Virus record (IMG/VR): IMGVR_UViG_3300028196_001171
Length of the DNA stretch: 55,066 nt
Strand: one strand, 5' to 3'
From: an uncultured virus (IMG/VR IMGVR_UViG_3300028196_001171)
Lineage: Duplodnaviria; Heunggongvirae; Uroviricota; Caudoviricetes
Below are positions 19,037 through 55,066 of the stretch, piece by piece. Each line of letters starts with the position of its first letter. Within the stretch, counting starts at the first letter, position 1. A program made the position numbers and the translations under genes. The notes under the pieces are model-generated. The model saw only the letters and a program-made list of their open reading frames with translations, made no database searches and was not told where the DNA came from.

Positions 19037-22000
19037 ATGGAAGAAGTAAACAAAAATTTACCTAGTTCAGGGAATAACTTAACAGATCAAATACTAGCAG
19101 ATACTACAGCTTTGAATCCTATTGATTCATCTAAGCCTTATGTATCTATTACTGATATAATGGATGATGATCCAACAGCTGTCAGTGATGAGTATAAAAA
19201 TATGATATCTGCTTATCAAACTGATATAGATAAATTTGGACCTATTAATATGGGTAATATTAATAGTGACCTACCTTCTCCTACATTCTCAACTCTACCA
19301 AATCAGAATACTGATACTTATGAGTCTCAAATGGATAGCCTGATAAAATCAATCGGGTCTCCTATGGTAAAGGAAGAGGGTGCTTTAGGGAAACCTATAT
19401 TTGAAAATGTTAGATCTTTAAATTTTGATAGACAGTATCAGTCAGAAGCTTTTGGTGATATAGGCTTTACACCATATGCAGATATGGATGATGTCTATAA
19501 TCAAAACATGACAGCTTATGATGGATGGCAAAGAGGATGGGAGCAGTTTCAACATCTTGCTGGTACAGGATTTGTATCAAGTTACAGATCAATTGCGGAT
19601 TTCTTTGATGGTGATGATTATTTGAGTTCTCCAGATTTAACTTCCGCATATGAAATGGAAGATGCAATGAGAATAGGAGGTAGTACTGATGGTTCTTTTA
19701 TTGGTAAAGCAGGAAACTTAGGTCTTAATTTTGGTTATACTGCAGGGATTGTAGCATCAGTAGCCTTTGAAGAAGTTATAATGGCTGCGGCTGCAGCTGC
19801 TGGTACCCTACCAAGTGGAGGTAGTAGCTGGGCTGCATTTGGGGCTGGCACTCTAAACAACTTAAGAAAACTAGGTAATCTTTTTGACGTATCTAGAGCA
19901 GCAAAGGCATCAAGAGATTTAGTAAAAACACTAAAAAATATTGAGAATGCAAGAAGTTTTTATAATGTATCAAGAGGTGTTGCTTCAGCAGGATTAAAAT
20001 TTGTAGCACCAGAGTTAACTCATGCTATTAAAAACTGGAAGACTACAGGTAACACAGCAAAGAATTTACTTAACATAGGAAAGAATACACATGTATTTGG
20101 TGCGTTTTATAGAGATATGAGAATGGTTAATGCTTCAATGTCTGAGTCTAAAATGGAAGCAGGTATGGTATTTAATCAAATTGAAATGAATGGTTTAAAT
20201 TATTTCAATTATAAGAATGGAGCCGGAAAAGGTATTACAGAAGAGCAAGCTAAAAATACAAGAATAAAAGCTGCTGAAGGAGCTTTCAAAGCTCAAATGA
20301 GAAACTTCTTAATTATACATGCATCAAATAGAATAGTATTAAAAAATGCATTTGGGGGTTGGCAAAGAAAACTAAATCAAGAAGCACAAAGAGTTTTAAG
20401 AGGAACAGGTGGTAAAGCAATAAAAGCAGAAAAGTATTTATTTAAACGTATACCTCAAGAACTAAATTTAGCATTTAAAACTCAAGGCTGGAAAGGTGTT
20501 CCTAAAGTATTAGGTAGTCAGATGTTAAAGTATGCAGCAGCTAATTTGGCTGAAGGTGTACAAGAAGTTTCTCAGGAAGCAATATCTGCTGCTACTATTG
20601 GATATTATAGTTCTTTATTAAGAGATCCTTTAGCAGGTGCACCATCTACCTATGGTGCTTTTGGTCAGCAGGCTGTAGGTAATGTATTTTCAAAAGAAGG
20701 GGCAGAAGTATTTGCATCTGGATTTTTTATGGGTGGTTTAGCTGGTCCTTACCAACAAGTATTATTTCAGGGAATGCCTGCTATATTCAGAAAAGGCCAA
20801 TCTATTTATAATAAAAGTACAGTTAAAGAAGGTGAGACAGCAGCAGATCCTTATACTGAGTATAATGCTGCAAGAGAAAAAGCAGTAGACGATGTTGTCA
20901 ATTACATCAATAAGATTAATGATCAGCAGATGAATGCTGAAAAACCATTAGAAGCTATATTAAGTGAGAACCAATTGAAGTTGACTTTGCAAAAACAACA
21001 ACAAGGTCTTATGAACTTAAATATTGCAATGGGTGATAAGAAAGAGTATTTTGATAATAGAAATTTTGCTGAGTTTGATGCATTAAAAAAAGCATTTGAT
21101 ACAGGATCTATTGTATTTTTAAAAGACAATCTTGTTAATTTAAATAAACTAAATGATAAAGAGTTAGTTGATGCATTTAAAGGAAGCGGTAGAAGTGCTA
21201 AATCATTAAGAAATAAAATATCAACTCAATTAGAAAGAATAGATTCTTTTGGAAAAACTGTTACTGATAATCTAGGTGGTATTTTTCCAACTAAATATGA
21301 TCCTAAACAGTTTGATCCAGGTACTGAGGAGTTTATTAAAGAGTCTTTTAAACTTCAAGCATATGAGCAAACAAAATTGCTTTATATGTTTACTAATGAG
21401 TCTTTTAAAAATGCAGCAATAAGACAGTCTGAAATAGAAAATAGACTAGAAACAGAACCACTTATTGCCAATCAAGGAGCAACTGATATAAGATTACTAT
21501 ACACTAAAGATACAATAGAACAAGAGATCAAAACTTTAGAAACAGAGATAGACGCATATGAGGATACTACAGAAGGGAATAAATTAAAATCAAAAAAACA
21601 AAAGAAAAAGAAAGCATTAGAAAAGTATCTTAAGATATTTACTGATCCTAAAAACTTAACAAAGAAAGGTTACTTTGCTAGAAACAAAGTAAAAACATCT
21701 GGTTTAGATACAGCATTTAAAAACTATATTGAAGCATTAGCAGACAAGTCTAGTGATTTTGTAGACTACGGTAAGATAAAAGAAGCTTTAACTTTAATTA
21801 CTGATCATGTAGCCTTACAAGAAGATGCTTCTGCATATAGTAAATCAGTTGACCTTTTAACTAATCCAAAAGTCCAAGAGCAATTAGAAGAAAGAGCCAC
21901 GGAATATCTTGAGTATATATATAAAAATAGAAAGACAATATATAAAAGACAGACTGAAGCATTTATAGATAGTGTTGAAAAAACTAAATTATTAAATGGA

Positions 22001-25000
22001 TTAGCTGAAGTAGATATTCTAATGGAAGAAAGCTTTGCAAGAGAATTTTTACAAGATGAAATAAGTTTAGAGGATTTACTTCAAGGAGTAAATGAAGGTA
22101 AGCTTATACAAAACGGCAGACGTTTAAATCCAAATGTTATAAAAGATGCTGAGTCATTAGCAAAAGCAGTAGCAATAATTAAAAATTACATTGGTGTAAA
22201 AGTTCAACAAGAAAGAAAGAGTGAAGTATCTGATGAAGCTGTGGCAAATGCAGAAATATTAGATATTGAAGAAACACTACAACAAGCTGGAATAGATGTT
22301 GAGGTAGATGAACAAGTTGATTCAAACATCTTAAATGAAATACTTAAACAGCAGTATCTAAAATACAGAGCTAATGACAAGTCCTCAGACCCATTAGATT
22401 TTTCACAATGGTCAGCAACAAACGAGGCTCTTAAAATTAAAAAAGCTTTTATTGCTATAAAGAGAGTATGGGCAAAAGGTTATTCAACTACAGTTGAAGA
22501 ATATGGCAATTTAGTTGAAAGGTCAAGAATACCATCTGCAGGAGATATAGATGAAGAAAAAGGTTTCCAAGAGTATCTAGATAGTAGAGAAGCTATTGAA
22601 AATCCTATTATAGAAGATATATTAAAACAGCTAGATTTATCTTATGATATTTTTACAAACAGGAATATCAATAAGAAAAGTAATTTAAAAGCCATTAAGG
22701 GTGGTGATGGAGTTAATTTCAGAGTTATATCAATAGATGTAGCTGATGAAGATCAAAAATTATATAAAATAATAAACAACAATGGATCAGATTTATCAGC
22801 AGTACAATTAGATGCAATATCTGGTCAAGGTGTTTACAACAATGCTAGAGCAGCTTTAGATCAGTTTACTATACTAGAAGAAGAATATTCAGATGGTTCT
22901 ACGTTTAAGTTTGATGGCCTTACACTTATAAGAGGTCAATTTGTATATGATAAAGTTACAGGAGAAGAATTTAGAGTTGCAGTAAATAGACCTTTAGGAG
23001 ATAACATTCAGTTAGTTACTCCAGAAGATTATGGTAAACCTTATGCTGACAGAAAACAAAAAGCAATAACAGAGTCTGAATTAGATTTTAGTGAGCGTTA
23101 CTATGATGAAAAACTTATTGTTGATAAAGTTCCTGATGGTACTGCTAAGATAACAGCAGATAACATTGCTAATATTTATGTAAGAGAAAACGCAGGTGAA
23201 TCAAAGGAAAGTGCTGAAAAACGTTTAAGCTGGATTATAAACAACCTAACTGATAATGTTTATAATAATTTAGTAATTGATGTAAAACCTAATCCTAATA
23301 AAGCAGCAACACAATTTAGCTATGGTGGTGTAGCTCAACCAAATAAATACATACTTACAAAAGGGGAACCTTATAATATACAGATAAGAATTAAAGATGA
23401 GCTTACTCTTCTTGAAGTTAACCAAAAATTACAAGCCGTAGGGTTGCAACCTATTAGTGATAAGAATAATGGCATTATAGGTAACATTGCAAATAGTTCT
23501 TATATATATAAAGTGGGTGTAAATGAATTCACACCTTCTACAATGTCTACAGATCTGGCTAAAAATATATTTAATGTAGATACATCTAAAACAACAATTG
23601 AACAAGAGCTTGCAAAAGCAATTGATTCTACAACTAGAAAAGATGTTTTAGTAAACTTCTTAAATAAACAATACGCTTCAGGTATAACTGAAATTACTTT
23701 TGAAAGTTTGAAGGAGAATGGTTTTTCAATTGTAAGAGAAGATGGTTACCCTGATTATAATACAGACAACCCATTAACAGTATTAAGTGACTTTTATAAA
23801 GCAGGTCTTTCTTCAGATGGAAAAGGTGGTATTCTTATTTATGATATTACTAGAGATAAGAATGGAGAATCCGTTGGTGAACCAGAAGTAATAAGCAATC
23901 TAATAGATGATGAACTTAAAGTATTAGAAAAAGAAGCTAAGGAAGGTTTACAAAATGGCTTGTGGAGTAAAATGCTAGGTCCTAACACTTTAGGTTATAC
24001 TGAAAGATATCAGTATGTTATTAAACAACCTAATGGAGTTTATACATTAGCAACTGCTAAGACTATTGGTCAAGACAAAACCATTATTAGCCAGTTTGTA
24101 ACTGGAATGATGGATAAGGTTATTGAACTGAAGGAAGGAAATAAAGAAAAAAATATAAAGCCTTCAATTAATGAAAAAGGAAATTATATTAATGGTCAGA
24201 CACAACAAACTGTTGGTCAAGAAATTGATGTATTTAATCTAGAAAATAATAAGAGTATCAGGATAGCAATGGTTCCTGGATTTGATGTTACTATTAATGT
24301 TGCACCCTTTGGAAAAATACGTGCAGTAGTAGAAAAAAATAGAAGTAAAATAACAACTACATATCTAGAGCTTTCAGAAATTAAAGCTTCATCAGATCCT
24401 TTGAAGCAACTGAATGACTTATTGAAAAAGATTAATGCTGACTTAGATGTTGCTGGTTATGATACTGTAAATATTTCTTTGAATCAATTTACAACATCAT
24501 TATCATTAAACGCTGATGTACAAACTACATTAGAATCCCTTGGTACAAAGCTTAGTCCTAGAGTCAGACGTAACTCTAAATTAAATTTTGAAACTACAAG
24601 TGCTGCTAATCAAGCAAGCTTTGATAAAGATGTAAATTTATCTGCAGAAGATAACACTAATAAAATACTCAATCTAGGAGATAAGATTACTACAAACGCA
24701 GTCTTTACTGAAACACTGGCATTCACTGATGCAGAAGGAAACCCTATTCCTGTTGGGGAAGAAAAAACGGCAACGTCAACAGATGGCTCTATAGACTTAG
24801 CATCTATAACACAGAGCCCATTAGATCAACTTAATGTAAAATTAAAAGAAATAGAAGACACCACTAAAAAAGAAGTGGGTGCTAGAGGATTAACAAAAGC
24901 ATTAAGAAATGACCCGGTATATCAAAAACTTAAACAAGCTAGAGATAAGCTGATTTCAAATAAAGTAGTTACAAATTTTACAGCAGAGGATGTACAATCT

Positions 25001-28000
25001 TTAAATGACTTCACTGTATGGGCACAAAATAACTTACCTGATTCTATTACTCTTGCTGATATAAATGTATTAGGAAGTAATCTTTTAAAAGGTGGTGTAA
25101 GAGTAGGTGGCTTTGCATTGAACATGAATGCATTGGCAGGAAATCTTAAAATAGGTGGAACAATATATACTGGTGCAAGTAACCCATTTAAATACCATGA
25201 GGCATTTCACGCAGTATACAGATTGTTATTAACACCAGAAGAACAAGTTAAGTTAAGAGCAATTGCTAGAAAAGAAGTAAGATCTAAGCTAAGAAAAGAA
25301 AATAAATCATTTACTAAAGAATTACAGAAATTTAAAAATACATCTGAGCAATATGATAATCTAAGTCTAAAAGAATTACAAAATCTTTTCTATGAAGAAT
25401 ATATGGCGGATGAGTTTAATAAATTTAAATTAAACCCAAGAGATACAAATACAGATTCTGTTGTTAAGTCATGGTTTACAAAACTTCTTGATTGGATAAA
25501 AGGTATATTCTCTAAGTATACTAAAACTCAATTGCAAAGTTTATATGAAAATATAGACTCTGGTAGATACGCACAGGCTGAATCAGTATCAAATGAATTT
25601 ACAGATAACTATAGCAATGAGATAGTAATAGCAAATGCTGTTATTCCATATGAGCAAGTACAAGTAGGAACAAGTAAAGGACAACTGTTTTTGGATAGTA
25701 GTGTAGCTAATAATATAGTTTTAACTATGGCGGCTACATTTGTAGAGAGACAGCAACAAGACCCTAAAGTCTCTAGAGAAGATAGAATGTCAGAAATATT
25801 AGATGACTTTGAGTGGTTGTATAGTGTTGACAATCCATCTAATCAAAGCAATATGAATGATGGTGAAAGATCTAAACTGTTACAAAAAATTACAGATTCT
25901 TTTATATACTCTAATAGTTATGAAGACCTAACTGAGTCACCTTATTATAAAGCTGCTTTTGATGTTTTGGATACAATAGACTTCCAAAAAGCAGAAGAGG
26001 TTGAGGAAGCAGATAGCCTTGAACAAGATCAAGGTCTAAGAAATGTAACTCAGTATGGTAAAGAAGCATACCTTAATGGAAGCTTTAGCTCATTATCATC
26101 TTACTTTAGAAAGTATTTAGCTACAATAACAAGAGCTGAGTCAGATATATTTGGTAACACAACTATAACAAGAAAAGATAATAGAGAAGAAAAGTTGATT
26201 GTACCTATAAATGTATATAATACTTACAACGGTATTATGAAAGCTATGGAGGGTAGAACTGAACCCATGGAAATTGTTCAGTCTTTAGCTTTATTTTCTA
26301 CGTCAAATCCAGATACAAAAGCAGCAGTTAACAAGATATTTACTGACTTAGGTATAACTATGGGTGAGTCAGTATCAGATATGGTGTTACCTACCAAGAT
26401 TAAGAATAGTATTTTGTTTAATCAGCTTAAAGCATTTAGCAATTTTAAAGTTGAATGGTTATTTCAAAAGACAGACAATAACGGAAGTTTAATTACTTTC
26501 TCTGCTGCAGAAAGAGATGATGCAAATACACAGTTGTCTTTATGGAGTCAAGCTTACACTTCATTATTACAAGAGTGGAAGATAAAACCAAAAGAAAGAA
26601 ACTCTGCAGTAAAATCAGTAAGTAGTCTTAGACAAGTATTATTAAGTGGTAAAAAGTTTAATGACCAGAAATTAGATGACTCAAGTAAAAATGCAGCTAA
26701 ACAAATATTTGATAATACAGGTATAAGTTTATCACCACAATATATAAAATTTAGCATACTAAAGTCTAATGGTACAAATGAAAAACATCCTGATCAAGAA
26801 TTACTTTTATCATTAAACACAAATGCAGAACCAATTACAGCTGAGCAACTTTATTTTATATCTGAGATTATAAAAAGCAAAGAGACAGCTCATGAACTAT
26901 ATAGTGATGAGAAAGGTGCAGCAGGTAGACTAAAGTCCATGGCAGTTAACAATGCCATATTTGATGAGAGTATTGGTTTATCCGTATTTAAAAATGTAAA
27001 TGGTGATTTAGTGAATGCTCATCAGAAGCCTACATATCATTTGAAAAGAATAAAGGAATTAAATTATCCGGCAAAATTACAAGAGTTATCAGAAAAAGAA
27101 TACTTATCAAATAATTATCTTTTAAATAATGATAAGTTTAAAGCAATGTCTGATGCTAATATGCTATCAGTACAAAGAGTATCTGGTGTTGCAGAAGTTA
27201 AAACATTAGATAGAGATGTTGATTATGATCAATATATCAGTGGAGTGTTGAATACAACAGAGTATGGAAGCTTTACAGCCGGTCAGTTTATGGCAAATTT
27301 AATTAACAACTATACATTAGACTTTAATCCAAAAACAAATAAGCTTAAAAAGTCTGTTGTAGTAAACCAAGAAACTGGTTTAGTTGAACAAATAGCCACC
27401 TCTCCTATTCAGATAAGAATTCTAGAGTCATCTAATACTAATGATATGACAACACTACCAGTTACAATTGCAGTATCTGGTAAAAATGCAGATATAACAG
27501 ACACCATAATAGATGCATCATTTGATTTTGTAAAAAATGAGTATGATAGAATTGTTAGAGAACAGGGTGAAAACAGAACAAAAGATTCATACAAAGGATA
27601 TGATGATAGAAAACTTAGTTTTGTAAATAATTCAGATTTAATTTCTGAAGAGTTAAGGAAATCTTTAGAGGTTTCTGCTCAACAAAAAGTTGGAGAAACT
27701 CTTGAAAAGCATCTTACTTTTAAAGAAGCATTAAAAAATAATGAATTATCAGAAAAACAATTTAAAGATCAGTTAAGAAACAATTTAGAAATTAAGTATA
27801 AAAGATTTAAGTCTTTATATGATACTCTTAAAATAGATAATAAAATATCTAATGAAATAAAATCTGGTATAGTTCAAGACAGAACTGGTGTAGATAGAGC
27901 AAATGCTGTAGCTGCTGCAGAAAAACTAAACTTAAGAAAAGATTTAGATTATAACTTAAGACAGATATTTTTCAATGATTATATAAATACAAAATCTATA

Positions 28001-31000
28001 AATGAACTTCTTCTTGGTGATCAAGCATTAATACTTAAAGACTCTGTTGATAAGATTAAAAGAGCTAAGGGTCAGAATGCAGCATTTGATAATGTATATA
28101 CTAATATGGTTGATACCAATTTAGGTGTTGATACCATGACTGAAAACATATCAGTGTTAACATTTGATGATCCTATTTTAAACTCTTGGTTTACTGGTCA
28201 AGGTATTGAAAGAGCAGATGCACAGGTTTATTTAACTACTAAAGCATTTAGAAACTTTTGGTTTGGTTTAGGTAAATTAACTAAGTCACAAGCTGATGTT
28301 ATAACTAAAATAGAACGAGGAGAAAGAATTACATCAAGTGATATCTTTGATGAAGGAGGGTTAATACAAACAGACGGGATGTTAAACTCTAAAAAGTTTG
28401 TTCATTTTGACGGTGAGCAGTTTATTAAAATGTCTGCTTTTGTTTTATCACCCTCATTTACATCTATAGATACAGGAAAGAAAGATAATGACGGTAATGT
28501 TATTTGGGAAGAAAACCCGTTAAGACCAGAGCTTCACAAACTAAGAGAAGATCTTGAGACTATTCAAAGAAATACAGGTAATGTAGCAATTGCAACACCT
28601 GTAAGTGCACAGAAAATGGCTAAGAAAAATGTACAGCTTTTAGATGAAAGTATATCAGAGCCATCTTCTATAATAAGTGCTAAAGATTTTGGATTACAAG
28701 TTGTAAATCCAAGTAATAAAAATTCTGTTACTGAAGTAAGTCAAATAAAACTATTAGCTACAAATGAGCAAGAGGATTCTCAACAGGTAAACATACCGGG
28801 TTATCCAGCTCTTACTAATATAAAGAAAGTTAAAGCATTCTATAATGATGCATTGAAGAAAAGAGTTGTTCTTAAATTTAAAAATAAAAGAAATTTAGTA
28901 TTTACTTTTGATGGAGTTATGTCAGAGTTTAATGTAAGTAAAGAAAGAAACAATCTTACACCCGACCTTGCATCATTCTTAAGTTATGCAATCAATTCTT
29001 TAAAAGCATCTAAATCTAGTAGTAATGTTATTGAGTTTTTTAGTATTGATCCTGTATCAGGACAACCTAAGTTTGACTTTAACAATCCATTGGCTATTGC
29101 AAAAGCAGAACAGTTATTTTTAAGTTACTTTACCAAAGGGGTGTTCCAGGAAAAAATACCAGGTCATGGTTTGGCTTTGGTTTCTGACTTTGGAAATAAT
29201 ATATATAGAAGAGTATTTAGTGTTGAAGAAATAAAAGATGAAGCAGGTAATAGTAAATTCTTACCTCTTAGACATGAAGTAATAAGAGAATCTGATGCAG
29301 TTAGAATGAAAGCTTTAGACGTTAAGCAATTCTCTATGGCTGAGTTAGCCCAAAAACAAATACCTAAAGAAGGTATAGTTGTAATAGATAGACTTAGATA
29401 TGGTCTACAAGAGTTTGATGATAAAGGTAGATCAACAAAACAACGTTATTCAGAAAGTATGATGCCTGCTCACTTCAAAGATGTATTTGAAAAGGTTGCA
29501 GAAAAAGGTGGTGCTATACCAGAGATGATTGCAAAAATGTTTGCTGTGCGTATACCATCACAAGATAATCATTCTACAATGAATATAAAACTTGTAGATT
29601 TTATGCCTGTTTATTATGGTTCTTCAGCAATGTTTGCAGCTGAACTTGTGGAAGTATCAGGTGCGGATTTTGATATTGACAAAGTATATACTCAAATATT
29701 AGAATACTATTATTCAAAAGAAGAGAAGAAGTTTTTCCAATATGGTGCTACACAAGGTAGACAGTATAAGGATTATGTTGAATATATTAATACAAAAGTT
29801 AAACAAGACACAATCTATGCTGAAGCATTAAAGTCTTTTAAAGTTCAAGGTTCAAGATTGGAGGACAGCTATGATGATAATTTTATTATAGATCAAATGT
29901 TTACTGATGATGCGCTAAAGGCTGTAACAAGACTAGGGCTTCCTGTAACCAAAGCTCAGTATCAAAAATATAAAGAAGAATATGGTGAGCCATATGAAGC
30001 ACCAATTAATAATGCAGTGCTTAATATGAGATATGCACTTATGGGTAATGAGGCAGTACAAGATATTTCTTATACCCCGGCTACACTAGATGCAGTAAAA
30101 GAAGCATATGCAAGTTTAGAAAAATTTGCACCAGGCTACACTCAATCTATGAATGGTTCTGAGGTTGATGTAGATGATATCAATGGTAAAGTAATATCAT
30201 TTATTAATAATAAAGGTGCAGCAATTGGTAGAGCTGTATCTCCAAACTTAGCCATTAGTTTATTAAGTGAGTATAAGATAAAGTTACCTGGAGAGTTACA
30301 GTTTAGTATTCTGAATAAACCATATACTGGATTTGACACAGCTACTACTACTGAAGGTAAAAGAAAGCAGGATACTATATCTGCTATAATAACAATGCTT
30401 ACTGATAACTCTAAAGAGAACTTTATGTCAAAGCTTGGTATGCACAAACAAGCAGTACCAAGAGCTGTAACAATGGTTGCTTTAGGAATTCCGTTGTCTG
30501 ACGCAATACTTATATTAAATTCAAAAATAGCCAGAGATCTATTTGAACAAGCATCTAATAAAATACAGAAGTTTGATGCAGGGTTTAAAGGTCTTGTTAA
30601 TCAGGAGCTAGCATTTAAGCAGGGTCAAATAAAAGATGGAAAAATATTAGGTATAGATTTATCTACAGGAATAAAAACTAGAGAAGATCTTGGTGGTTTA
30701 GTTGAAGGTGGTGGTTCTTTTAAACAAGAGCTAGAACTGCTAGAAATTTTATCTACAGTAAATACTATAAATGAATTTATTGGTAATATGAATTCATTAA
30801 CTGGTATATCAGGTAGTGCAGGACTAGGTAAAAACTTTGCTGACATAGCATCAATAAAAAAAGATCTACAGAAAATAGGTGCAATAGAAAAAATTGGAGA
30901 AAATCCAGTAATTGATATATCCCGTATTTTGGAAAATAGTTTTGTAAAACAAAATTTAGATATCTTTAATGAGATAACAAATGAGCTTTTACCACAAGTA

Positions 31001-33046
31001 TTCTTAACAGCAACTCCTGTATTTAATGAACTTTATGAAAAACTTGAAAAGTCATTTGCTGTAGATGCTATAACTTTTAATGAAGAGACAGAGCAGAAGA
31101 TTAGAAGGGATATGCTTTCTTACTTTACTATAAAAGCGTATATGCATAACAATGCAAATACACAAGATAAAGATGCAGGAACATTAAGCAATAAGCTTAT
31201 ATACCCTATGGTAGATGCTCAAAATATTTATGATTCTATTAGAAGATTAAATGCTGCAGACAATGATAACTTTTTTCTTAAATCATTTGTTACACAGTTA
31301 CCTGTGAATGCAGAGTCTAACAAAACAGGAATTAATATTTTAGCTGCTAATACATGGAGAAATTTAAATAAACTCCAGAAGATAGATCTTCAAACCTCAT
31401 TTGCAAAATTGTATGGTAACCCTGCAACAAGAAAAGATGCCTCAACAATTGTAAATTACATTATGGTTAAAGATGGTTTGCAGCTTTCTAAAGATAGCTT
31501 ATTAGAAGCAATATCTCCTTTTGTAATGGATTCTTATCTACAACAAATAGAGACTGCCAAAGAGTCTTTACTTAATGATAAAGATTACAAGGATGCTTTT
31601 GGTTTAACAAAAGATGAGTTATTTAATGAGTTTGAAAATGGATACTTATCATCTAATGTTGGTATGTTTAATCTTACTTTTAAAGAGGTTAGGACAGACG
31701 TTGATGGTTCTTCAGATACACAAACTTCAATTAAAGGTAAAACAGCACTAAGTAAAGACGGTGTGTTAACATTATCTGCCCCTAAGAACTCACAGGTTGA
31801 TGGTGCATTTGTTTTTGAAAATCAACCAAAATACTTAAGGTATTATACTGAAACAGATACTGGATTTGGAGTAGAAAGATCAAACAAATTATTTTTACTA
31901 AGGGAAGATCAAGAAAAAAGCACATCATTTATGTATGATGAAGTTCCATTTATGGGGTCAAATTATCAAAATGCAATAGGGTTTATGTTTGGTGCTAGAG
32001 ATACATATGCAACAGTTAGAAATAATATTAGTAATAAAACTGATATTATAGGTAATATAGAAGACATGCTTGGTATAGATCAAGTTATTGATTCATTGGA
32101 TATTGAAAATCTTAATTTAGATAGATCAAAATCTATATCAGCCCGTGCACTTAGAACTGAAAGTGCAAATGTATCTGCTACAGAAGACAGTGTAGAATTT
32201 CAAATAGATTCAGCTGCTGTTCCAGTTAACATTGCACAGGTAAATGCTGATACACTTTTAGAAAGCTTAACAACTCCTACAGAACAAACTAGTAAGGTTG
32301 AAATATCTTCTAATGCTAAAGGTTTAGCAGCAGCGCTTACTAATCCTACGGAATTAGCTAAGTCTAAAGGTAACCTTGCAGAGTCTTACCCTATAACTTT
32401 TAACGGTAAAAACTATAAAGATGTTGAGGCAGCTTATCAGGCATTAAAAGATAAGTCTGAAGCTAGGACTAAACCCACTAAGGAAAATAGTAATAACTAT
32501 AGGTTGATGGTAGATTTAATATCAGCTAAGTTAGAGCAACACCCTAGGTTAATTTCTTCAATAACTGAAAAAGGAGGTGTTGATTGGATAAGTTCTTCTA
32601 CTCACCAACCTACTAAACAAAATACAGTTTGGGAAACAGGTGGTCAAGATTGGTTTATTGAATCTTTAGCTGATGCTTATAGATCTACTCAACCAGCAAC
32701 ACAATCAAGAGAACAAGCTAATATTAAAACAGAGACAGAAGGTATTTTATCAGCTGAAAATAATATGCCTGAGCTAACTTCAAAACAAAATGAACAATTA
32801 GATTTATTTGATGCAGCTTTAGAAGACAAGTATCCATTAATAACAGTATTCTATAATGAAACAATTAATGCTCCATACATAGCAGATGAGTTTACTGAGA
32901 TGAGAAAAAACCTGGCTGATAATAATATTGTATCTTTGAAAGATCTTACAGCATTATATGAAAATGAAACATTGTCATATGAAGGGAAAACAGAAGAGGA
33001 AAAAATTAAAAATTTCTTAGAAGAAATCAAAAGATGTAATTTATAG
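19037..33046 (+). CDS. Virion-packaged single-chain DNA-dependent RNA polymerase (crAss-like), with a zincin-like domain and a C-terminal NADAR-like domain
   Basis: 4669 aa. RIPSQ...SGADFDIDK, with catalytic DFDID at 29666-29680 as in phi14:2 gp66. HEAFH at 25196-25210. ITFNGKNYKDVEAAYQA at about 32393-32443. Confidence 0.9.
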   Translation: MEEVNKNLPSSGNNLTDQILADTTALNPIDSSKPYVSITDIMDDDPTAVSDEYKNMISAYQTDIDKFGPINMGNINSDLPSPTFSTLPNQNTDTYESQMDSLIKSIGSPMVKEEGALGKPIFENVRSLNFDRQYQSEAFGDIGFTPYADMDDVYNQNMTAYDGWQRGWEQFQHLAGTGFVSSYRSIADFFDGDDYLSSPDLTSAYEMEDAMRIGGSTDGSFIGKAGNLGLNFGYTAGIVASVAFEEVIMAAAAAAGTLPSGGSSWAAFGAGTLNNLRKLGNLFDVSRAAKASRDLVKTLKNIENARSFYNVSRGVASAGLKFVAPELTHAIKNWKTTGNTAKNLLNIGKNTHVFGAFYRDMRMVNASMSESKMEAGMVFNQIEMNGLNYFNYKNGAGKGITEEQAKNTRIKAAEGAFKAQMRNFLIIHASNRIVLKNAFGGWQRKLNQEAQRVLRGTGGKAIKAEKYLFKRIPQELNLAFKTQGWKGVPKVLGSQMLKYAAANLAEGVQEVSQEAISAATIGYYSSLLRDPLAGAPSTYGAFGQQAVGNVFSKEGAEVFASGFFMGGLAGPYQQVLFQGMPAIFRKGQSIYNKSTVKEGETAADPYTEYNAAREKAVDDVVNYINKINDQQMNAEKPLEAILSENQLKLTLQKQQQGLMNLNIAMGDKKEYFDNRNFAEFDALKKAFDTGSIVFLKDNLVNLNKLNDKELVDAFKGSGRSAKSLRNKISTQLERIDSFGKTVTDNLGGIFPTKYDPKQFDPGTEEFIKESFKLQAYEQTKLLYMFTNESFKNAAIRQSEIENRLETEPLIANQGATDIRLLYTKDTIEQEIKTLETEIDAYEDTTEGNKLKSKKQKKKKALEKYLKIFTDPKNLTKKGYFARNKVKTSGLDTAFKNYIEALADKSSDFVDYGKIKEALTLITDHVALQEDASAYSKSVDLLTNPKVQEQLEERATEYLEYIYKNRKTIYKRQTEAFIDSVEKTKLLNGLAEVDILMEESFAREFLQDEISLEDLLQGVNEGKLIQNGRRLNPNVIKDAESLAKAVAIIKNYIGVKVQQERKSEVSDEAVANAEILDIEETLQQAGIDVEVDEQVDSNILNEILKQQYLKYRANDKSSDPLDFSQWSATNEALKIKKAFIAIKRVWAKGYSTTVEEYGNLVERSRIPSAGDIDEEKGFQEYLDSREAIENPIIEDILKQLDLSYDIFTNRNINKKSNLKAIKGGDGVNFRVISIDVADEDQKLYKIINNNGSDLSAVQLDAISGQGVYNNARAALDQFTILEEEYSDGSTFKFDGLTLIRGQFVYDKVTGEEFRVAVNRPLGDNIQLVTPEDYGKPYADRKQKAITESELDFSERYYDEKLIVDKVPDGTAKITADNIANIYVRENAGESKESAEKRLSWIINNLTDNVYNNLVIDVKPNPNKAATQFSYGGVAQPNKYILTKGEPYNIQIRIKDELTLLEVNQKLQAVGLQPISDKNNGIIGNIANSSYIYKVGVNEFTPSTMSTDLAKNIFNVDTSKTTIEQELAKAIDSTTRKDVLVNFLNKQYASGITEITFESLKENGFSIVREDGYPDYNTDNPLTVLSDFYKAGLSSDGKGGILIYDITRDKNGESVGEPEVISNLIDDELKVLEKEAKEGLQNGLWSKMLGPNTLGYTERYQYVIKQPNGVYTLATAKTIGQDKTIISQFVTGMMDKVIELKEGNKEKNIKPSINEKGNYINGQTQQTVGQEIDVFNLENNKSIRIAMVPGFDVTINVAPFGKIRAVVEKNRSKITTTYLELSEIKASSDPLKQLNDLLKKINADLDVAGYDTVNISLNQFTTSLSLNADVQTTLESLGTKLSPRVRRNSKLNFETTSAANQASFDKDVNLSAEDNTNKILNLGDKITTNAVFTETLAFTDAEGNPIPVGEEKTATSTDGSIDLASITQSPLDQLNVKLKEIEDTTKKEVGARGLTKALRNDPVYQKLKQARDKLISNKVVTNFTAEDVQSLNDFTVWAQNNLPDSITLADINVLGSNLLKGGVRVGGFALNMNALAGNLKIGGTIYTGASNPFKYHEAFHAVYRLLLTPEEQVKLRAIARKEVRSKLRKENKSFTKELQKFKNTSEQYDNLSLKELQNLFYEEYMADEFNKFKLNPRDTNTDSVVKSWFTKLLDWIKGIFSKYTKTQLQSLYENIDSGRYAQAESVSNEFTDNYSNEIVIANAVIPYEQVQVGTSKGQLFLDSSVANNIVLTMAATFVERQQQDPKVSREDRMSEILDDFEWLYSVDNPSNQSNMNDGERSKLLQKITDSFIYSNSYEDLTESPYYKAAFDVLDTIDFQKAEEVEEADSLEQDQGLRNVTQYGKEAYLNGSFSSLSSYFRKYLATITRAESDIFGNTTITRKDNREEKLIVPINVYNTYNGIMKAMEGRTEPMEIVQSLALFSTSNPDTKAAVNKIFTDLGITMGESVSDMVLPTKIKNSILFNQLKAFSNFKVEWLFQKTDNNGSLITFSAAERDDANTQLSLWSQAYTSLLQEWKIKPKERNSAVKSVSSLRQVLLSGKKFNDQKLDDSSKNAAKQIFDNTGISLSPQYIKFSILKSNGTNEKHPDQELLLSLNTNAEPITAEQLYFISEIIKSKETAHELYSDEKGAAGRLKSMAVNNAIFDESIGLSVFKNVNGDLVNAHQKPTYHLKRIKELNYPAKLQELSEKEYLSNNYLLNNDKFKAMSDANMLSVQRVSGVAEVKTLDRDVDYDQYISGVLNTTEYGSFTAGQFMANLINNYTLDFNPKTNKLKKSVVVNQETGLVEQIATSPIQIRILESSNTNDMTTLPVTIAVSGKNADITDTIIDASFDFVKNEYDRIVREQGENRTKDSYKGYDDRKLSFVNNSDLISEELRKSLEVSAQQKVGETLEKHLTFKEALKNNELSEKQFKDQLRNNLEIKYKRFKSLYDTLKIDNKISNEIKSGIVQDRTGVDRANAVAAAEKLNLRKDLDYNLRQIFFNDYINTKSINELLLGDQALILKDSVDKIKRAKGQNAAFDNVYTNMVDTNLGVDTMTENISVLTFDDPILNSWFTGQGIERADAQVYLTTKAFRNFWFGLGKLTKSQADVITKIERGERITSSDIFDEGGLIQTDGMLNSKKFVHFDGEQFIKMSAFVLSPSFTSIDTGKKDNDGNVIWEENPLRPELHKLREDLETIQRNTGNVAIATPVSAQKMAKKNVQLLDESISEPSSIISAKDFGLQVVNPSNKNSVTEVSQIKLLATNEQEDSQQVNIPGYPALTNIKKVKAFYNDALKKRVVLKFKNKRNLVFTFDGVMSEFNVSKERNNLTPDLASFLSYAINSLKASKSSSNVIEFFSIDPVSGQPKFDFNNPLAIAKAEQLFLSYFTKGVFQEKIPGHGLALVSDFGNNIYRRVFSVEEIKDEAGNSKFLPLRHEVIRESDAVRMKALDVKQFSMAELAQKQIPKEGIVVIDRLRYGLQEFDDKGRSTKQRYSESMMPAHFKDVFEKVAEKGGAIPEMIAKMFAVRIPSQDNHSTMNIKLVDFMPVYYGSSAMFAAELVEVSGADFDIDKVYTQILEYYYSKEEKKFFQYGATQGRQYKDYVEYINTKVKQDTIYAEALKSFKVQGSRLEDSYDDNFIIDQMFTDDALKAVTRLGLPVTKAQYQKYKEEYGEPYEAPINNAVLNMRYALMGNEAVQDISYTPATLDAVKEAYASLEKFAPGYTQSMNGSEVDVDDINGKVISFINNKGAAIGRAVSPNLAISLLSEYKIKLPGELQFSILNKPYTGFDTATTTEGKRKQDTISAIITMLTDNSKENFMSKLGMHKQAVPRAVTMVALGIPLSDAILILNSKIARDLFEQASNKIQKFDAGFKGLVNQELAFKQGQIKDGKILGIDLSTGIKTREDLGGLVEGGGSFKQELELLEILSTVNTINEFIGNMNSLTGISGSAGLGKNFADIASIKKDLQKIGAIEKIGENPVIDISRILENSFVKQNLDIFNEITNELLPQVFLTATPVFNELYEKLEKSFAVDAITFNEETEQKIRRDMLSYFTIKAYMHNNANTQDKDAGTLSNKLIYPMVDAQNIYDSIRRLNAADNDNFFLKSFVTQLPVNAESNKTGINILAANTWRNLNKLQKIDLQTSFAKLYGNPATRKDASTIVNYIMVKDGLQLSKDSLLEAISPFVMDSYLQQIETAKESLLNDKDYKDAFGLTKDELFNEFENGYLSSNVGMFNLTFKEVRTDVDGSSDTQTSIKGKTALSKDGVLTLSAPKNSQVDGAFVFENQPKYLRYYTETDTGFGVERSNKLFLLREDQEKSTSFMYDEVPFMGSNYQNAIGFMFGARDTYATVRNNISNKTDIIGNIEDMLGIDQVIDSLDIENLNLDRSKSISARALRTESANVSATEDSVEFQIDSAAVPVNIAQVNADTLLESLTTPTEQTSKVEISSNAKGLAAALTNPTELAKSKGNLAESYPITFNGKNYKDVEAAYQALKDKSEARTKPTKENSNNYRLMVDLISAKLEQHPRLISSITEKGGVDWISSSTHQPTKQNTVWETGGQDWFIESLADAYRSTQPATQSREQANIKTETEGILSAENNMPELTSKQNEQLDLFDAALEDKYPLITVFYNETINAPYIADEFTEMRKNLADNNIVSLKDLTALYENETLSYEGKTEEEKIKNFLEEIKRCNL

Positions 33047-33049
33047 AAT

Positions 33050-36000
33050 ATGGGAAAGTGTCACAATAAAAATCTAACAACGTATAAAAACTTAAAGAAA
33101 GTTTATAAGACTGATATTATAACAAATAATGTAATAAATCAATATCAGAGACTTTCAAAGGGTGATGCTATACCTACTGTTGTTGAAGCGCAAAACATGA
33201 TTGCTAATAAAAAAGTTCTTTTTAACTTGAAGCAAGAAGAGTTTGGTGTTGCATTATTAAATAATCTTAGAAGGCTAAAAATAATACATAGCTTTGGGGG
33301 TAAGTACTATATTAATAATACTGATACAGATACATTACAACCAAGCCAAAGACTTATAGACTCTAATGTTAGAAGGTTAAATAGGTATCTTGAAATAAAT
33401 AACATACCTGTTGAGTCTATAGATATAGCTAAAACAAAAAAAACATTTTCTGTATCTATTAACCCGTCTATTTTTTCTGCAACTGACATGTTAGAATCCT
33501 CTAGAGCATGGGATAAACCTAGAGCAAGAAAAGTAGTTTCACATTTAATGAGAATGTTTCCTGGAATTAATGTTAAGTTAATGTCAGTAAAGGATGCAGA
33601 GAATCTTTATGCTAGTATACCTCAATGGAAAAAAGCAAAAGTTCCATTTAGTAAAATAAACTCATTTTATTTGGATGGTACTGCTATACTAATAAATGGC
33701 AGAGTAACAGATGAAATAGCAATAGAAGAAGTATTACACCCTTTCATAGATGCTGTAAAACTAGATAATGAAGATCTATTTAATTCTTTATTAAATGAAG
33801 CACAAAGGAATTTTCCTGAAATGACTCAACAAATAAAAGATGCTTACCGTGGTAAAAGAAGATTTACAGAAGCTGATGTTCAATTAGAAATTGTAACACA
33901 AGCACTATCTAGACATTTTAATAATGAGTATGAGAATACCCCAACTAAAAGTTTTACTGATAAAATAAAACAATTTTTAGAGTGGTTTTCTAAAATTATT
34001 AAAAACCTCAATGAGGTAATTACAGGGCGTGTTCTTGAAGTAAATAATATATCTGATAAAGCAACCTTAAGTGACATTGCTAGATTGCTTAATACAGATG
34101 GTATATCATTTAAACTAGATACACCTGTTAATGGTAGAATAAGATATAGCCTATCACCTGAAAAACAAAAGATAGTCAATGTAGCAAAAAAAGAAGGTGG
34201 GGTTTTACAGAGAAGAATGATTGATAGATTATTTCACAATGTTCAAAGTGCTAAAGAGGAATCAGATACTTTGTCTGCCTCAGAAGGAGTTACTTTTAAC
34301 AGTGATGACTTGGTTATTTTGAATAAAGAAGACGGTAAATATTATAGTCTTACCAGCAAAAAACCTTTTATATCAGCTAAAGAAGCGCTTGGTAGAGAAG
34401 AAACTAAAGAACAACAGCTTATTAAAAATGATTTAAGTACAATGTTAGATGCTATTGCATCTCATGAATCTTTTGATAAGATATCTGATAAGATTACAAA
34501 TATAGAAACTGATGTAGCTAAGCAGGCTTTTAGTAATATAGTAAATCAGGTTAATACAGTTAAAAGTCAAGGAGATGTAATGTTGACTAATGTTGTTTTT
34601 CATGACGCATATTCAGAGATAGCTTCTAAAGCAGACATAGTCTTGGTTGCATCAACCGGACAACTTAAGATTTTACAAATACAATTAACTGAATCAAACG
34701 TTTTAAAAACAAATCCAAAGACTTGGGCTAAGGGAATATTTACTTCTACTAAAGATATGGGTATACTGTATGGTGATAAGAAAAATCCATACAATGTAGA
34801 TAAGGTAACTCTGGCAGAAACAAGTATGTATGCAAAACTTACTGATACAAAGTCCTTAACTCTTAAAACACTAGATGCTTTAGAAGTAAACCTTTTACAA
34901 AGAATGGTTGAAAATATGGGCTATGATATTGAGTATGGTGTTGGTAATGTTGCTAGTCTGCTGATTTCTTATAATGGTAAGAAAATAAGGTTTGACGGTA
35001 ATGAGCCACATGGGTATAAACAAAATGCAGAAAAGGTCAATGTTTTAATACCGGCTATAGATACAAACTTAGCAGAACAAGAGATATCAGAACAAGTCCT
35101 TAAAGACGCAGCAGAACAAATTTATAATGCTGAGCAAGATATAGAATCTGCTGAAAATTTTGCTGATACTGTTGATCCTTTAGAATATCCTGAACAAGGA
35201 ACCGTTCTTGGTGCCTTAGAAACATATGAAAAAGCTTTAAAAAGTAAACAAGAAGTAGAAGATTTATTAAAGGAAAACATATATAGAGATAGATCAAAAG
35301 AAGATGTGCAAGAAGAAATAGCAAGTACATTGAGTTACATAGCTCTTGCTAAACAAGAAGGTCCTATATCACAGTCTAGAGTGTACACAAGATTGTTACA
35401 GGATGCTCTAAGACAGATGAAGTCATTTAAAGAATATGCTACTGACCCTAAGAATCAAAGTAAAAAAGAATACATAACATATATATTAAACTTTAATAGA
35501 TTCCTTTCAACATTTGAGGGGCTTCATGCTATAGAAGCCAACAAAGAATTAAATGCAACACAAAGATCATTATTAGGTAGTATTAATATTGAACTTACTC
35601 AACTACTTGGTAATGATATTGTATCAGAAGTAGGTGCTAACAGAGGTATAATTAAAACAGCTATACTTGATTATGTTGCTACTGTAATTAGAGCTTTTGC
35701 AAAGAAAGGAAAAAAGACAGATGCTGAAACAGTCATACAGTCACATTCAGGACAGACAATTACTCTTGATGATTTGGATGAGTTATTTAATCTTGTACCT
35801 GATATATCTAACTCAGAACTTTATGCCAAGGATTTAGCAACATCAAAAGATGTCATTCTTGCAACTATGGATAAAATATTTAAGTTTAAAAAGCAAGAAT
35901 TCTTAGATAGAGTTCAAGCTAGAAAAGCAGATATATTAGATGCTGGTAAAACACTACTAGAACTCTCAGGTGAAAAAGATCTTCAAAGGTTATATGATTT

Positions 36001-39304: not shown

Positions 39305-39488
39305 AGTCCTTTTTTAATGAGTCAATATATTTAGCTCTATCATATGCATCTTGTATTGAGTCTTGCTTAGTATAAATAATAAGCTCTCCTTCATCTACAT
39401 ACCAGTCTAGTACATCCGGATCCTTATCAGGGTTATACTGTGGCTTGCAACCTAGGCAAACCAACAGTAATAATAACCTAACCTTCAC
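39294..39488 (-). CDS. Small lipoprotein
   Basis: MKVRLLLLLVCLG|C signal peptide with lipobox; overlaps the nrdA stop. Confidence 0.55.
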   Translation of the reverse strand: MKVRLLLLLVCLGCKPQYNPDKDPDVLDWYVDEGELIIYTKQDSIQDAYDRAKYIDSLKKDSIF

Positions 39489-41103
39489 AACTACTACATT
39501 CTAAAATGTTTCTTGCAAAGTCTTGTGCACTGCTTTTACTAAATTGATAGTATAAAGTTTTCACACCTTCTTCCCAAGCATACATATATAACTTATTAAT
39601 ATCCTTAGCTGAGACAGATGGATCTATCATCAAGTTTAATGACTGTGACTGATCAATATACTTTTGTCTTTGTGCCGCCTGGAGTACAAGCTCTTTTGGA
39701 GATATCTCAACAAAAGACTTGAACACTGCTTTAGTAGGAAAATCTAAGTGTTGTACACTACCATCTTTCTTTAGGATAGATTTCCAAGTCTTGTCTGTAT
39801 TTAGACCATACTTCTCAAGTTCCTCTTCTAAAAATGGGTTCTTGTAAATAGTCTTAGACTTAGCAAGGTCCTTAATAAAGTAGTTAGACTTAATAGGTTC
39901 TATACCCATAGACACAGCACCGTGTATAAATGAACTAGACTTAGTAGGAGCAATGGCCATAAGAGTAGTGTTAGCATACCCTTCTCTAAGAGATGTGTAT
40001 CCATACACATTATGCAACTCTCTAGAAGCAATCTCACTTCTATCTTTAAGTGTTCTAAAGATCTCACTGTTTAATCCTTTAGCTTGTAATGAGTCAAACT
40101 CAAGAAGCTTAGATTGAAACAAAGAGTGGTATCCCAATACACCAAGACCAATTGCTCTATGCTTCTCAGCAAAGTTAAACGCTCTCTTCATACCCGGCAT
40201 AGTCTCAGACTTAATAATGAATTCATCCATTACTGCGTTTAAGAAATATACATATGTTTCAATTGCATCCGTTTCTTTTATAAGGTCCCAGTGTAATAAG
40301 TTAATAGAACCAAGACAACATACAAAAGAGTTATAACTATCAGTAGGAAGCTGGATCTCTGAACATAGATTAGATGCTGTAATCTCCATACCAAGTTCTT
40401 TATAAGGAGAATTATTGTTAGAGTTATCTTTAAACATAATATAAGGAAACCCAAACTCACTTCTGTTCTGAATGATCTTAGCCCATACTTTACGCTTGCT
40501 CTTATCACCATCTTTCATCTCTTGCATCCACTGATCAGTAACTGTAACACCATACTGTAAATTTTGTATAGGATTACCCTCTGTACCAATATCTAAGAAC
40601 TCTAAGATATCCGCATGCTCAACGGGTAGGTATACTGCACAAGCACCACGTCTGGCCTCAGACTGCTTGCAAACGTCCACTACAGTATCATAAATCTTAG
40701 CATAGTGCACTGGACCATCAGCAAAACCACCTGTAGATATTTCAGTTCCTCTTGCTCTAATGTTACCAATAAAAGCACTTGTACCTCCACCATATTTACT
40801 CATCATTCCAATTTCACGGCCTGCATTTAATATGCTATCTAAGTTATCATCAACGTTAGATCCGTAGCAGCTTATAGGTAAACCTTTTTGTTTACCAAAG
40901 TTAATCCATACAGGAGTAGACAAAGAGTAAAACCCTCTTGCCATATAATCCTCAAACTTTTCTGCAAAGCCTTTTATATTCAAATACTTTTCTGCTTTAA
41001 TAGCAATGTCTTTGATTCTTTGTTCAGGGCTTTCTGATATATACCCTCTTGATAAAAATGTGCGGCTGTCTTCATTCAGCCAGTAGTACTTATTATATTC
41101 CAT
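39478..41103 (-). CDS. nrdA: Ribonucleotide reductase class I alpha subunit (no ATP cone)
   Basis: PISC, SKYGGG, SNLCSEI, APTKSSS, TLYY and C-terminal CSSCEG motifs. Confidence 0.95.
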   Translation of the reverse strand: MEYNKYYWLNEDSRTFLSRGYISESPEQRIKDIAIKAEKYLNIKGFAEKFEDYMARGFYSLSTPVWINFGKQKGLPISCYGSNVDDNLDSILNAGREIGMMSKYGGGTSAFIGNIRARGTEISTGGFADGPVHYAKIYDTVVDVCKQSEARRGACAVYLPVEHADILEFLDIGTEGNPIQNLQYGVTVTDQWMQEMKDGDKSKRKVWAKIIQNRSEFGFPYIMFKDNSNNNSPYKELGMEITASNLCSEIQLPTDSYNSFVCCLGSINLLHWDLIKETDAIETYVYFLNAVMDEFIIKSETMPGMKRAFNFAEKHRAIGLGVLGYHSLFQSKLLEFDSLQAKGLNSEIFRTLKDRSEIASRELHNVYGYTSLREGYANTTLMAIAPTKSSSFIHGAVSMGIEPIKSNYFIKDLAKSKTIYKNPFLEEELEKYGLNTDKTWKSILKKDGSVQHLDFPTKAVFKSFVEISPKELVLQAAQRQKYIDQSQSLNLMIDPSVSAKDINKLYMYAWEEGVKTLYYQFSKSSAQDFARNILECSSCEG

Positions 41104-41114
41104 TGGTTTTGTTT

Positions 41115-42095
41115 TTAAAATAAATCATCAACTGTGATGCTCTTACTTTTCTTGTTATAGTCAACACTCTTCTTGTAAAAGAAGTCTCCTTCTTTGGTGC
41201 CTGTTATTTCTATGTCAAACCATTCTACTGATTTTAATAGTTCTTCATCTACCTCAAAAATAGATTTCATACCTATCTTTTCTAAAGAGTTATTGAATCT
41301 GTTTTTTATAAAGTGTTGTATTGTATTCTGGGGTAAGAAGCTAAGCTCACCTTTCTCAAAGATCCAATCAAGTATACCACACTCTGCTCTATATGCTTTT
41401 CTACATGCTGAATCAATCAGATCTTCAAACTCTTGGTCAAACCATTCTGGATTTTCTCTTTTGATTATATTAATAATCTCAGCACCAAAGTTACCGTGTA
41501 TCTCTTCTTCCTTACTAGTAGCCTCAACAACATTAGATATACCTTTAAGTACATTCTTTTCTTTGTTAAAGCTCATCATAATTAAGAACTGACTAAACAA
41601 ACTTACGTGCTCTATAAATAAAGAGAATAGCAATACAGACTTAGTATACATCTTATTGTCTCTAGAACGTGTACCATCTAGGTACTTTTTTAAGTACTTA
41701 AGTCTACCCTCTATTGCAGGTACCTCAACTACTGATTGAAATTCTTTTTCTAATCCTAGTATTCTAAGCAGTCTGGCGTAGGCATCTTTATGTCTTACTT
41801 CTGACTCAGCAAAAGTAAAGCCTACATCACCCACTTCTGTGATTGGCATTCTCTTATAAAGATCTCCCCAAAAGGTTTTAACATTAACTTCTATTTGTGC
41901 AATAGCAAGCATTGTTTTTTTAATGACATCTTTTTCTCCATTTGATATAGTGACTTTAAAGTCTTGTATGTCTTCTGTAAAGTTGAATTCTGTATCAATC
42001 CAGTAGGAGTGTCTAATTGCATCTTTGTATGCTAATAGTTGTGGATATTCATAAGGCAATATGTTTACTCTGGGCTTAAAGATGTCTTTGTTCAT
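41115..42095 (-). CDS. nrdB: Ribonucleotide reductase class I beta subunit (NrdBi/class Id-like)
   Basis: AIAQIEVNVK, ESEVRH..AY, EHVSLFSQF, EEEIH and DFF...VDY motifs. Confidence 0.95.
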   Translation of the reverse strand: MNKDIFKPRVNILPYEYPQLLAYKDAIRHSYWIDTEFNFTEDIQDFKVTISNGEKDVIKKTMLAIAQIEVNVKTFWGDLYKRMPITEVGDVGFTFAESEVRHKDAYARLLRILGLEKEFQSVVEVPAIEGRLKYLKKYLDGTRSRDNKMYTKSVLLFSLFIEHVSLFSQFLIMMSFNKEKNVLKGISNVVEATSKEEEIHGNFGAEIINIIKRENPEWFDQEFEDLIDSACRKAYRAECGILDWIFEKGELSFLPQNTIQHFIKNRFNNSLEKIGMKSIFEVDEELLKSVEWFDIEITGTKEGDFFYKKSVDYNKKSKSITVDDLF

Positions 42096-54440: not shown

Positions 54441-55066
54441 TTAAAATATATATCTTATTGTGTTTAAAGGAAAATACTTCTTGTATATATCCTTGAATTC
54501 ATTGATTAGCCTGCCTTTATGTTCTAAAGGATACCTCATAACGCCTGATTGATTTTTAACTTCATAAGAACGCCTCATTAGTTCCTGCGCTTCTGGTGAT
54601 GCTTTAATCATTTGGTTCTTATGATTGGTTAAAGCTATTACCTCACATTTATTTATACCTGCTAGTTCTTTTACCTGTTTAAAAAGATTATCATACTCTT
54701 CTTTCCATCCGGGATAAAATACAAGAGGGCTATAATTACAATGTACTTCCCATCCTAGCTTCTTGAGCCGATTAATATCATCTATACGGCTCATAATCTT
54801 TTGCATCTTAGGTTCTAATATATTAGAATACTTCTGAGGCATAAGACTAACACGAACTCTTGGAGGCTTGTTAAAATTACTAACGTCTAACGTTAGTAGT
54901 CCTGGGTACTTTGTAGCCATTGTTGTATTAAGATTTTTATGTTTATCATACATAAGCAAGTAATCATATAAAGAAATTCCTGCTTTCCTTACATGTTTCT
55001 GCATAAGTACTAAATCTGTATTACAAGCAATGTCAACCATTGTGTATATTGGGTCTTGTTGATCAG
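54441..55066 (-). CDS. Spore photoproduct lyase-like (radical SAM) protein, 5'-truncated
   Basis: The frame is open to the window edge. DIACNTD, ATKY, RVRVSLMP, SRIDDIN...GWEVHCNYSP and RY motifs. The CxxxCxxC motif would lie outside the window. Confidence 0.7.
   Translation of the reverse strand, partial: DQQDPIYTMVDIACNTDLVLMQKHVRKAGISLYDYLLMYDKHKNLNTTMATKYPGLLTLDVSNFNKPPRVRVSLMPQKYSNILEPKMQKIMSRIDDINRLKKLGWEVHCNYSPLVFYPGWKEEYDNLFKQVKELAGINKCEVIALTNHKNQMIKASPEAQELMRRSYEVKNQSGVMRYPLEHKGRLINEFKDIYKKYFPLNTIRYIF

Follow-up and report, generated by a model that had tools for sequence, protein, structure and literature searches.

The window examined here, a 55,066-nt stretch of an uncultured virus (IMG/VR record IMGVR_UViG_3300028196_001171), carries a gene (19037..33046, plus strand, as are all features below unless stated) for a crAss-type virion RNA polymerase polyprotein of 4,669 amino acids, in whose variable C-terminal cargo slot lies a shortened domain of the NADAR fold (aa 4420-4551, 32294..32689). 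A first reading made from the letters alone (the sequence-only reading) had taken the gene for a virion RNA polymerase, and the evidence agrees: the catalytic DPBB motif GADFDIDK (aa 3542-3549, 29660..29683), the zincin-like motif HEAFH (aa 2054-2058, 25196..25210) of a fused module resembling the gp65 zincin described in 10.1101/2020.03.07.982082, tblastn matches of the polymerase core to annotated crAss RNA polymerase subunits in 63 phage records (best E of 3e-12 among the 25 matches listed), and a crAss capsid protein and ring proteins encoded by the same 117-kb genome. The DFDxD signature by which such polymerases are recognized occurs here in a giant protein from the cargo block of a crAss-like genome and, as in polyvalent proteins, unrelated enzyme domains are joined in a large invasion-stage protein of variable architecture. 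A phmmer search of the PDB with the polymerase region gave no match, the solved gp66 included. The sequencing runs containing the window DNA are seawater or marine, with 14 marked as possible sources, and the host is probably a member of the Bacteroidota, an assignment that leans on PMC7886860.

The sequence-only reading had further proposed a NADAR-like domain near the end of the polymerase, and the motifs that it quoted occur in frame within the open reading frame (ORF) 19037..33046, with the linkers TPTEQTS and STQPATQS flanking the domain. A structure model built from a 67-row alignment (predicted local distance difference test, pLDDT, of 97.3; predicted TM-score, pTM, of 0.90) displays the α-helical core with two small β sheets on either side that characterizes the YbiA fold. 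When this model was compared with 48,161 PDB representatives, only three chains reached Z>=5 and all of them are NADARs, namely 8bau from P. nicotianae (Z 9.6, root-mean-square deviation 3.1, 115 residues aligned), 2b3w, the E. coli YbiA (Z 9.3, 2.5, 108 aligned), and 8bat, the DarG1 protein (Z 5.7, 3.3, 103 aligned), the next chain, an unrelated one, scoring 3.9. The NADAR fold is thereby confirmed at the level of the predicted structure. The profile comparison that had been suggested as a check also succeeded, with a probability of 86.8 (E 4e-6) for the family profile against YbiA in hhalign, although the same profile matched the single T4 gp30.3 sequence only weakly (probability 4.7); the Foldseek part of that check placed NADARs at the top without reaching significance, the first ranks being YbiA in one library (E 0.07) and viral NADARs in the other (best E 0.002). 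Family databases barely perceive the domain. The window's copy has no match above cut-off to the Pfam families PF08719 and PF08010, Pfam NADAR matches are weak and restricted to 4/67 family members (best E 0.021), single-domain searches in Pfam, PHROGs, and the PDB (phmmer) gave nothing useful, and the domain found no match among cultured or GenBank phages. A narrow profile (A1) did not recover the solved NADARs, a wider one (A2) did so weakly (E 0.041 and 0.36), and Atlas look-alike clusters carry the PF08719/PF08010 families at 14-32%. The domain escapes Pfam because its central lobe is gone, and several phosphate- and DNA-binding residues with it, while a basic insert of 11 residues has been added.

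The catalytic positions have nevertheless been retained. Glu4464-x6-Lys4471 (32426..32449) corresponds to E43/K50 of the P. nicotianae enzyme (PnNADAR), to E88/K95 of the E. coli C7 protein, and to E36/K43 of T4 AdfN. His4523 (32603..32605) occupies the E125/D171 position, at which His is the signature of phage NADARs (PMC11543638) and of the gp30.3/AdfN branch, and Trp4532 (32630..32632) is the likely equivalent of PnNADAR W133; with these two, whose equivalence was assigned by eye from aligned motifs, the domain possesses both a second catalytic residue of the expected kinds (Glu, Asp, or His) and the conserved Trp. The outcomes that the sequence-only reading had named as fatal to itself, a missing NADAR fold or missing catalytic residues, did not occur. 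Among 273 distinct family domains the Glu is present in 270, the Lys in 257, the His in 266, and the Trp in 269. Codon comparisons with the window show purifying selection on the domain, the ratio of non-synonymous to synonymous rates (dN/dS) being 0.23, 0.15, and 0.16 for the well-diverged loci L007, L008, and L015, respectively, and 0.5 for the close L006; the comparison with L025 is saturated. The ligand of PnNADAR is contacted by E43, K50, R79, W89, R93, E125, D130, and W133 (PMC11543638), and in linear alignments the pyrophosphate contacts R79, W89, and R93 are not found in the window domain, their positions falling in or beside the missing lobe (about 25-30 central residues are lacking relative to YbiA). 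The basic insert (aa 4437-4447, 32345..32377), which follows the LTN motif and is absent from T4 gp30.3 and YbiA, is specific to the family and keeps its second Lys in 234/273 members. By inspection it is similar to the lost helix, for which it may substitute, K4442 and K4444 being possible replacement phosphate contacts.

The domain travels on an in-frame cassette of 429 nt, or 143 codons (32288..32716), and the locus L033 is an exact empty allele, which at this site differs from the window by the 429 nt between two AGAACAA repeats. The left copy of this 7-nt direct repeat is at 32281..32287 and the right one, part of a degenerate joint, at 32710..32716. To follow the cassette among orthologues we took the best 80 of 109 polymerase matches and discarded six whose tails were cut or out of frame; the remaining 74 tails (59 distinct) form 38 clusters at 90% identity. 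The presence/absence comparison called for by the sequence-only reading revealed a patchy domain, found in 4 of the 59 distinct tails, and in all three clusters concerned carriers stand beside members that lack it, the pairs being L026/L027 and L029 (95% identical over 700 aa), L034 and L033 (99% identical), and L037 and L046/L050 (89% for L046, linked through L050), each with the carrier named first. The copy in L034 differs from that of the window at only 3/396 bases, on a polymerase with 68% protein identity to the window's and 40-85% identity in 100-base DNA blocks, and a recent lateral swap is therefore indicated. The idea of a recent insertion thus finds its support in the empty allele and in these gain/loss pairs, but not in the codon argument from which it came. 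The AGG excess on which that argument stood is real (three AGG and one AGA among the Arg codons of the domain, against 8 AGG among the 152 elsewhere in the gene; Fisher p=0.001), but it is a weak argument that concerns one codon family chosen after the fact. Codon bias was rejected as proof of recent insertion; overall codon use in the domain is ordinary, with 26/104 same-size windows scoring as low or lower and 19/104 having a third-position GC content (GC3) as high. Contigs from RNA libraries cover parts of the cassette, a coverage from which transcription cannot be inferred, and no contig of the four runs shows the exact 429-nt skip; loose contig ends in run X14 indicate other strains that run on from the end of the NADAR into a new joint.

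At the left cassette junction lies a joint motif of the Q-T-S-x-V type (QTSEVE-type; 32285..32300), the sole copy in the window, where 0.04 would be expected by chance. The window, L006, and L034 supplied the search pattern and therefore match it by construction. Orthologues of the L053-L097 type also carry the motif in their tails, again in frame, for a total of 27/136 loci, and the bases upstream of the pattern are likewise conserved. In IMG/VR, 64 stretches match the joint, and the frame of the motif is the longest open frame in 63/67 matches; 12/40 distinct joint flanks match the set of polymerase tails, while a few matches are chance occurrences in unrelated genes. Joints can be repeated within a tail. 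L077 has one and L081 two, 504 nt apart, with a protein exactly 168 aa longer, and in L063 two joints stand 513 nt apart. The L081 cassette is identical at 483/504 positions to the first cassette of L034, on polymerases that are 37% identical. That 168-aa cassette (L034:12944-13447, L081:12755-13258), with 96% DNA identity between the two phages, has no Pfam match. The left joint type bounds other cargo domains too, among them DUF7831, a cpYpsA SLOG domain, and, in L170 and L178, another NADAR-like domain that is longer. This longer cassette, which retains a central lobe (L178:702-1151, L170, L201-L215), uses the same joint and in L178 follows the cpYpsA SLOG domain. DUF7831 (PF25176) is the commonest named tail cargo, seen in 13/45 orthologue tails scanned (L039, L048, L051, L055, L064, L073, L078, L084, L085, L090, L091, L093, and L094). 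An 18-nt joint of the TQPSTS type, which belongs to other lineages, is present in seven other loci and absent from the window at <=2 mismatches.

Beyond these orthologues, the short NADAR is carried by 114 large proteins among 272 candidates, the window's own included, and the family amounts to 557 clusters at 50% identity. An RNA polymerase motif occurs in 108/114 of the large carriers; the domain follows it in 105 and precedes it in three. Domain identity runs from 45 to 100%, against an identity of only ~20-40% for most aligned polymerase cores. As counted by eye, the co-cargo of these proteins comprises SF1 helicase (29), DUF7831 (17), and 2OG-Fe(II) oxygenase (16) and, more rarely, PF18760 (4), which we take to be ART-PolyVal, cpYpsA SLOG (2), and RNase H (1). 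Elsewhere, standalone members of 130-150 aa occur in 24 bacterial-genome loci, mostly cyanobacterial, and in L114 (3134-6313) the same short NADAR is embedded in a family-A DNA polymerase near genes for dUTPase, ERF, and uracil-DNA glycosylase, a fusion that points to a nucleic-acid substrate. At three loci in cyanobacterial assemblies (L123, L125, and L126) the domain lies within proteins of 1,600-1,900 aa without a Pfam match, which are likely polyvalent proteins of mobile elements.

Other observations concern the Cys residues of these proteins and the surroundings of the gene. The only Cys of the window's polymerase is residue 4667 of 4669 (33035-33037) and the only Cys of the next ORF is its residue 4 (33059-33061); such facing pairs across the gene boundary exist in most polymerase orthologues, and a Cys is found within the last eight residues of 107/114 large NADAR carriers. 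Small and mid-size carriers (P0119, P0222-P0229, P0234, and P0236) have a Cys near residue 3 and mostly another near the end, and look as if they were whole cargo units forming separate chain links. On the minus strand, the window also encodes a ribonucleotide reductase pair (39478-42095) and an ORF resembling spore photoproduct lyase (54441-55040).

In comparison with characterized NADARs, the window domain is closest in structure to YbiA (2B3W) and PnNADAR (8BAU), with which the hairpin, the catalytic helix, and the M..AK..QH helix align, but it differs from both in the His that replaces Glu at the E125 position and in the loss of the central residues and of R79/W89/R93. With T4 gp30.3/AdfN it shares the Glu-x6-Lys pair, the His at the second catalytic position, a similar N-terminal strand, the LSN/LTN motif, and the condition of an orphan phage NADAR (10.1101/2024.07.11.602962; PMC11125620), whereas AdfN is a free 152-aa protein with a central lobe and the window domain, lobe-less and with the 11-residue insert, forms part of a virion polymerase. 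DarG1 of the DarTG1 system (8BAT; PMC11543638) has the same fold, with equivalents of its E88/K95 in the window domain, which unlike DarG1 has no K115 segment, no N-terminal DNA-binding extension, and no linked darT, and has His for Asp at D171. As to the carrier, the DFDID motif, the adjoining zincin module, and the crAss cargo block recall phi14:2 gp66 and crAss001 gp47/49/50 (10.1101/2020.03.07.982082; PMC10172136), although the window polymerase is twice as long as gp66 and has a variable tail slot. Effector domains on an injected, zincin-bearing virion polymerase are also reminiscent of the polyvalent virion proteins of PMC5512222 and of the virion-packaged NAD/ADP-ribose domains of PMC9503650, where NADARs have already been proposed to be packaged; the examples in the relevant passages of those papers are N4-type polymerases, described there without joint-bounded cassette exchange.

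We propose, with a probability of about 0.5, that the domain is a tethered eraser of guanine-linked ADP-ribose (G-ADPr) on the packaged polymerase, which counters a host ADP-ribosyltransferase (ART) of the DarT1 kind and is taken up when useful. crAss polymerases have been reported to be packaged and translocated, gp66 transcribing single-stranded DNA best (10.1101/2020.03.07.982082), and the crAss cargo proteins, at about six copies each, have been proposed to unfold, traverse the tail before the DNA, and refold (PMC10172136). By analogy, the polymerase tail would be packaged, ejected, and refolded, so that the NADAR domain would likely enter the cell with it and cut ADP-ribose from the guanines of unwound phage DNA or new RNA. 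Hydrolysis of the N-glycosidic bond of guanine-ADPr is expected from family membership, since every NADAR assayed hydrolysed G-ADPr on DNA and RNA (PMC11125620, PMC12945103, PMC11833690), and a counter-defence role is suggested by the context, several phage NADARs being able to counter DarTG1 (10.1101/2024.07.11.602962). DarT1 modifies guanine in single-stranded DNA and is inactive on double-stranded DNA (PMC11543638); because of this, and because gp66-type polymerases prefer single-stranded DNA, tethering would place the eraser at the exposed template, and the action against DarTG on the first transcribed DNA envisaged by the sequence-only reading is plausible. DarTG1 itself as the specific target is a more tentative matter, and we regard it as possible rather than probable. 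The cassette would be an optional one, acquired through recombination at the joint wherever the host has a matching transferase, and its patchy gain and loss fits such host-dependent selection. In rescue experiments a negative result may be false, because T4 gp30.3 and YbiA, both of which hydrolyse G-ADPr in vitro, also fail to rescue uninfected cells from DarT1 toxicity (PMC11125620; 10.1101/2024.07.11.602962).

Several observations weigh against this eraser. With Foldseek alone, neither library yielded a match at E<=0.001. In the domain itself, only ~14 residues are left of the lobe that separates the catalytic Lys from the AKF helix, linear alignment offers no counterpart to PnNADAR R79 and W89 or to the K115 position of DarG1, R93 is not conserved, and the domain begins at the YbiA core, without the DNA-binding extension of DarG1. 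Only about six copies of the polymerase would fit in a crAss virion (PMC10172136), and its packaging is presumed, as is retention of the tail after any cleavage by the zincin. Phage NADARs have moreover been argued to act mostly on soluble ADP-ribose derivatives (PMC9503650), and at 15 of the 24 loci of standalone relatives, where 107/167 neighbouring ORFs were scanned, the neighbours include SLOG (L122, L128, and L130), DUF4326 (L129 and L130), PNK3P (L113 and L119), a gene combining kinase, phosphatase, and RNA ligase (L128), a conjugative coupling protein, and a helicase; neither DarT nor another ART turned up among the 107. The domain might accordingly hydrolyse or bind NAD-derived immune signals or by-products of RNA repair at entry instead of modified DNA, as would also suit its fusions to cpYpsA SLOG and DUF4326 and the disappearance of the lobe with its DNA-facing lysine. 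We hold this to be unlikely, since the proposal is older than the biochemistry of G-ADPr hydrolysis by NADARs, phosphate-end ADP-ribosylation is not reversed by these enzymes (PMC11833690), a few tethered copies would make a poor sink for a diffusible signal, and the fusion inside the DNA polymerase of L114 favours DNA as the substrate.

The chemistry could be the same and its timing different, with newly made, self-inhibited polymerase cleaning replicating DNA before packaging in mid or late infection and injection being incidental. The phi14:2 polymerase is indeed a middle gene whose transcription continues late (10.1101/2020.03.07.982082), DarT1 blocks replication, and the virion copy number is low, but a free small gene would serve that purpose better, and in crAss-like phages the domain resides mostly on large cargo proteins, suggesting that delivery matters; the later timing appears somewhat less likely still than action on soluble compounds. 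A non-catalytic binder of ADP-ribose or nucleotides, or a near-neutral passenger spread by an easily recombining joint, would account for the three lost phosphate-contacting positions and for close relatives that manage without the cassette. It is improbable in view of a dN/dS well below 1 and of catalytic-position residues that are near invariant in the 273 domains, standalone members from bacterial genomes included. Hardly credible, finally, is protection against ARTs of the phage itself, of competing phages, or of mobile elements, rather than against host defence: PF18760 accompanies the domain in 4/114 carriers, but the other 110 have no match to it, and a scan of 83 ORFs of the window's genome detected no ART. 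A general domain scan likewise found no DarT among the window's ORFs, and a search of the genome aimed at DarT was uninformative, its control giving no signal. A bolder reading, which we consider doubtful, would make the polymerase tail a dedicated exchange slot with a conserved in-frame joint of ~27 nt (P-T-Q-Q-T-S-E-V-E), by which distant crAss-like phages swap whole injected counter-defence enzymes. The NADAR would there have been rebuilt, with its phosphate-binding basic helix moved from mid-fold to the new N-terminal insert, and its target would be an undescribed DNA- or RNA-ADP-ribosylating defence of the Bacteroidota.

Enzymes fused to virion polymerases and packaged NADARs are already in print. 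To these the window contributes an exact pair of empty and filled alleles, gain or loss in three lineages, a swap of very recent date, and another type of joint. Among the matches listed for NADAR in combination with phage, crAss, Crassvirales, or RNA polymerase, no paper describes the fusion of such a domain to a crAss polymerase; the main text of PMC5512222 does not mention NADAR, that of PMC9503650 does not mention crAss, and the text of PMC7886860 mentions neither NADAR nor YbiA, although the supplements and figures of all three, where domain architectures are listed, may show such fusions. The known anti-DarT enzymes of phages, AdfN and AdfM (PMC13309987 for the latter), are free proteins. 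If our proposal is true, a NADAR on an injected polymerase would instead be an eraser loaded in advance, already there before the first phage gene is expressed; the idea can be tested directly with the natural pairs of plus and minus alleles. Counts of phage NADARs are too low because Pfam misses this family, and the joint offers a handle for mining unannotated cargo domains of the same slot as candidate counter-defence enzymes.

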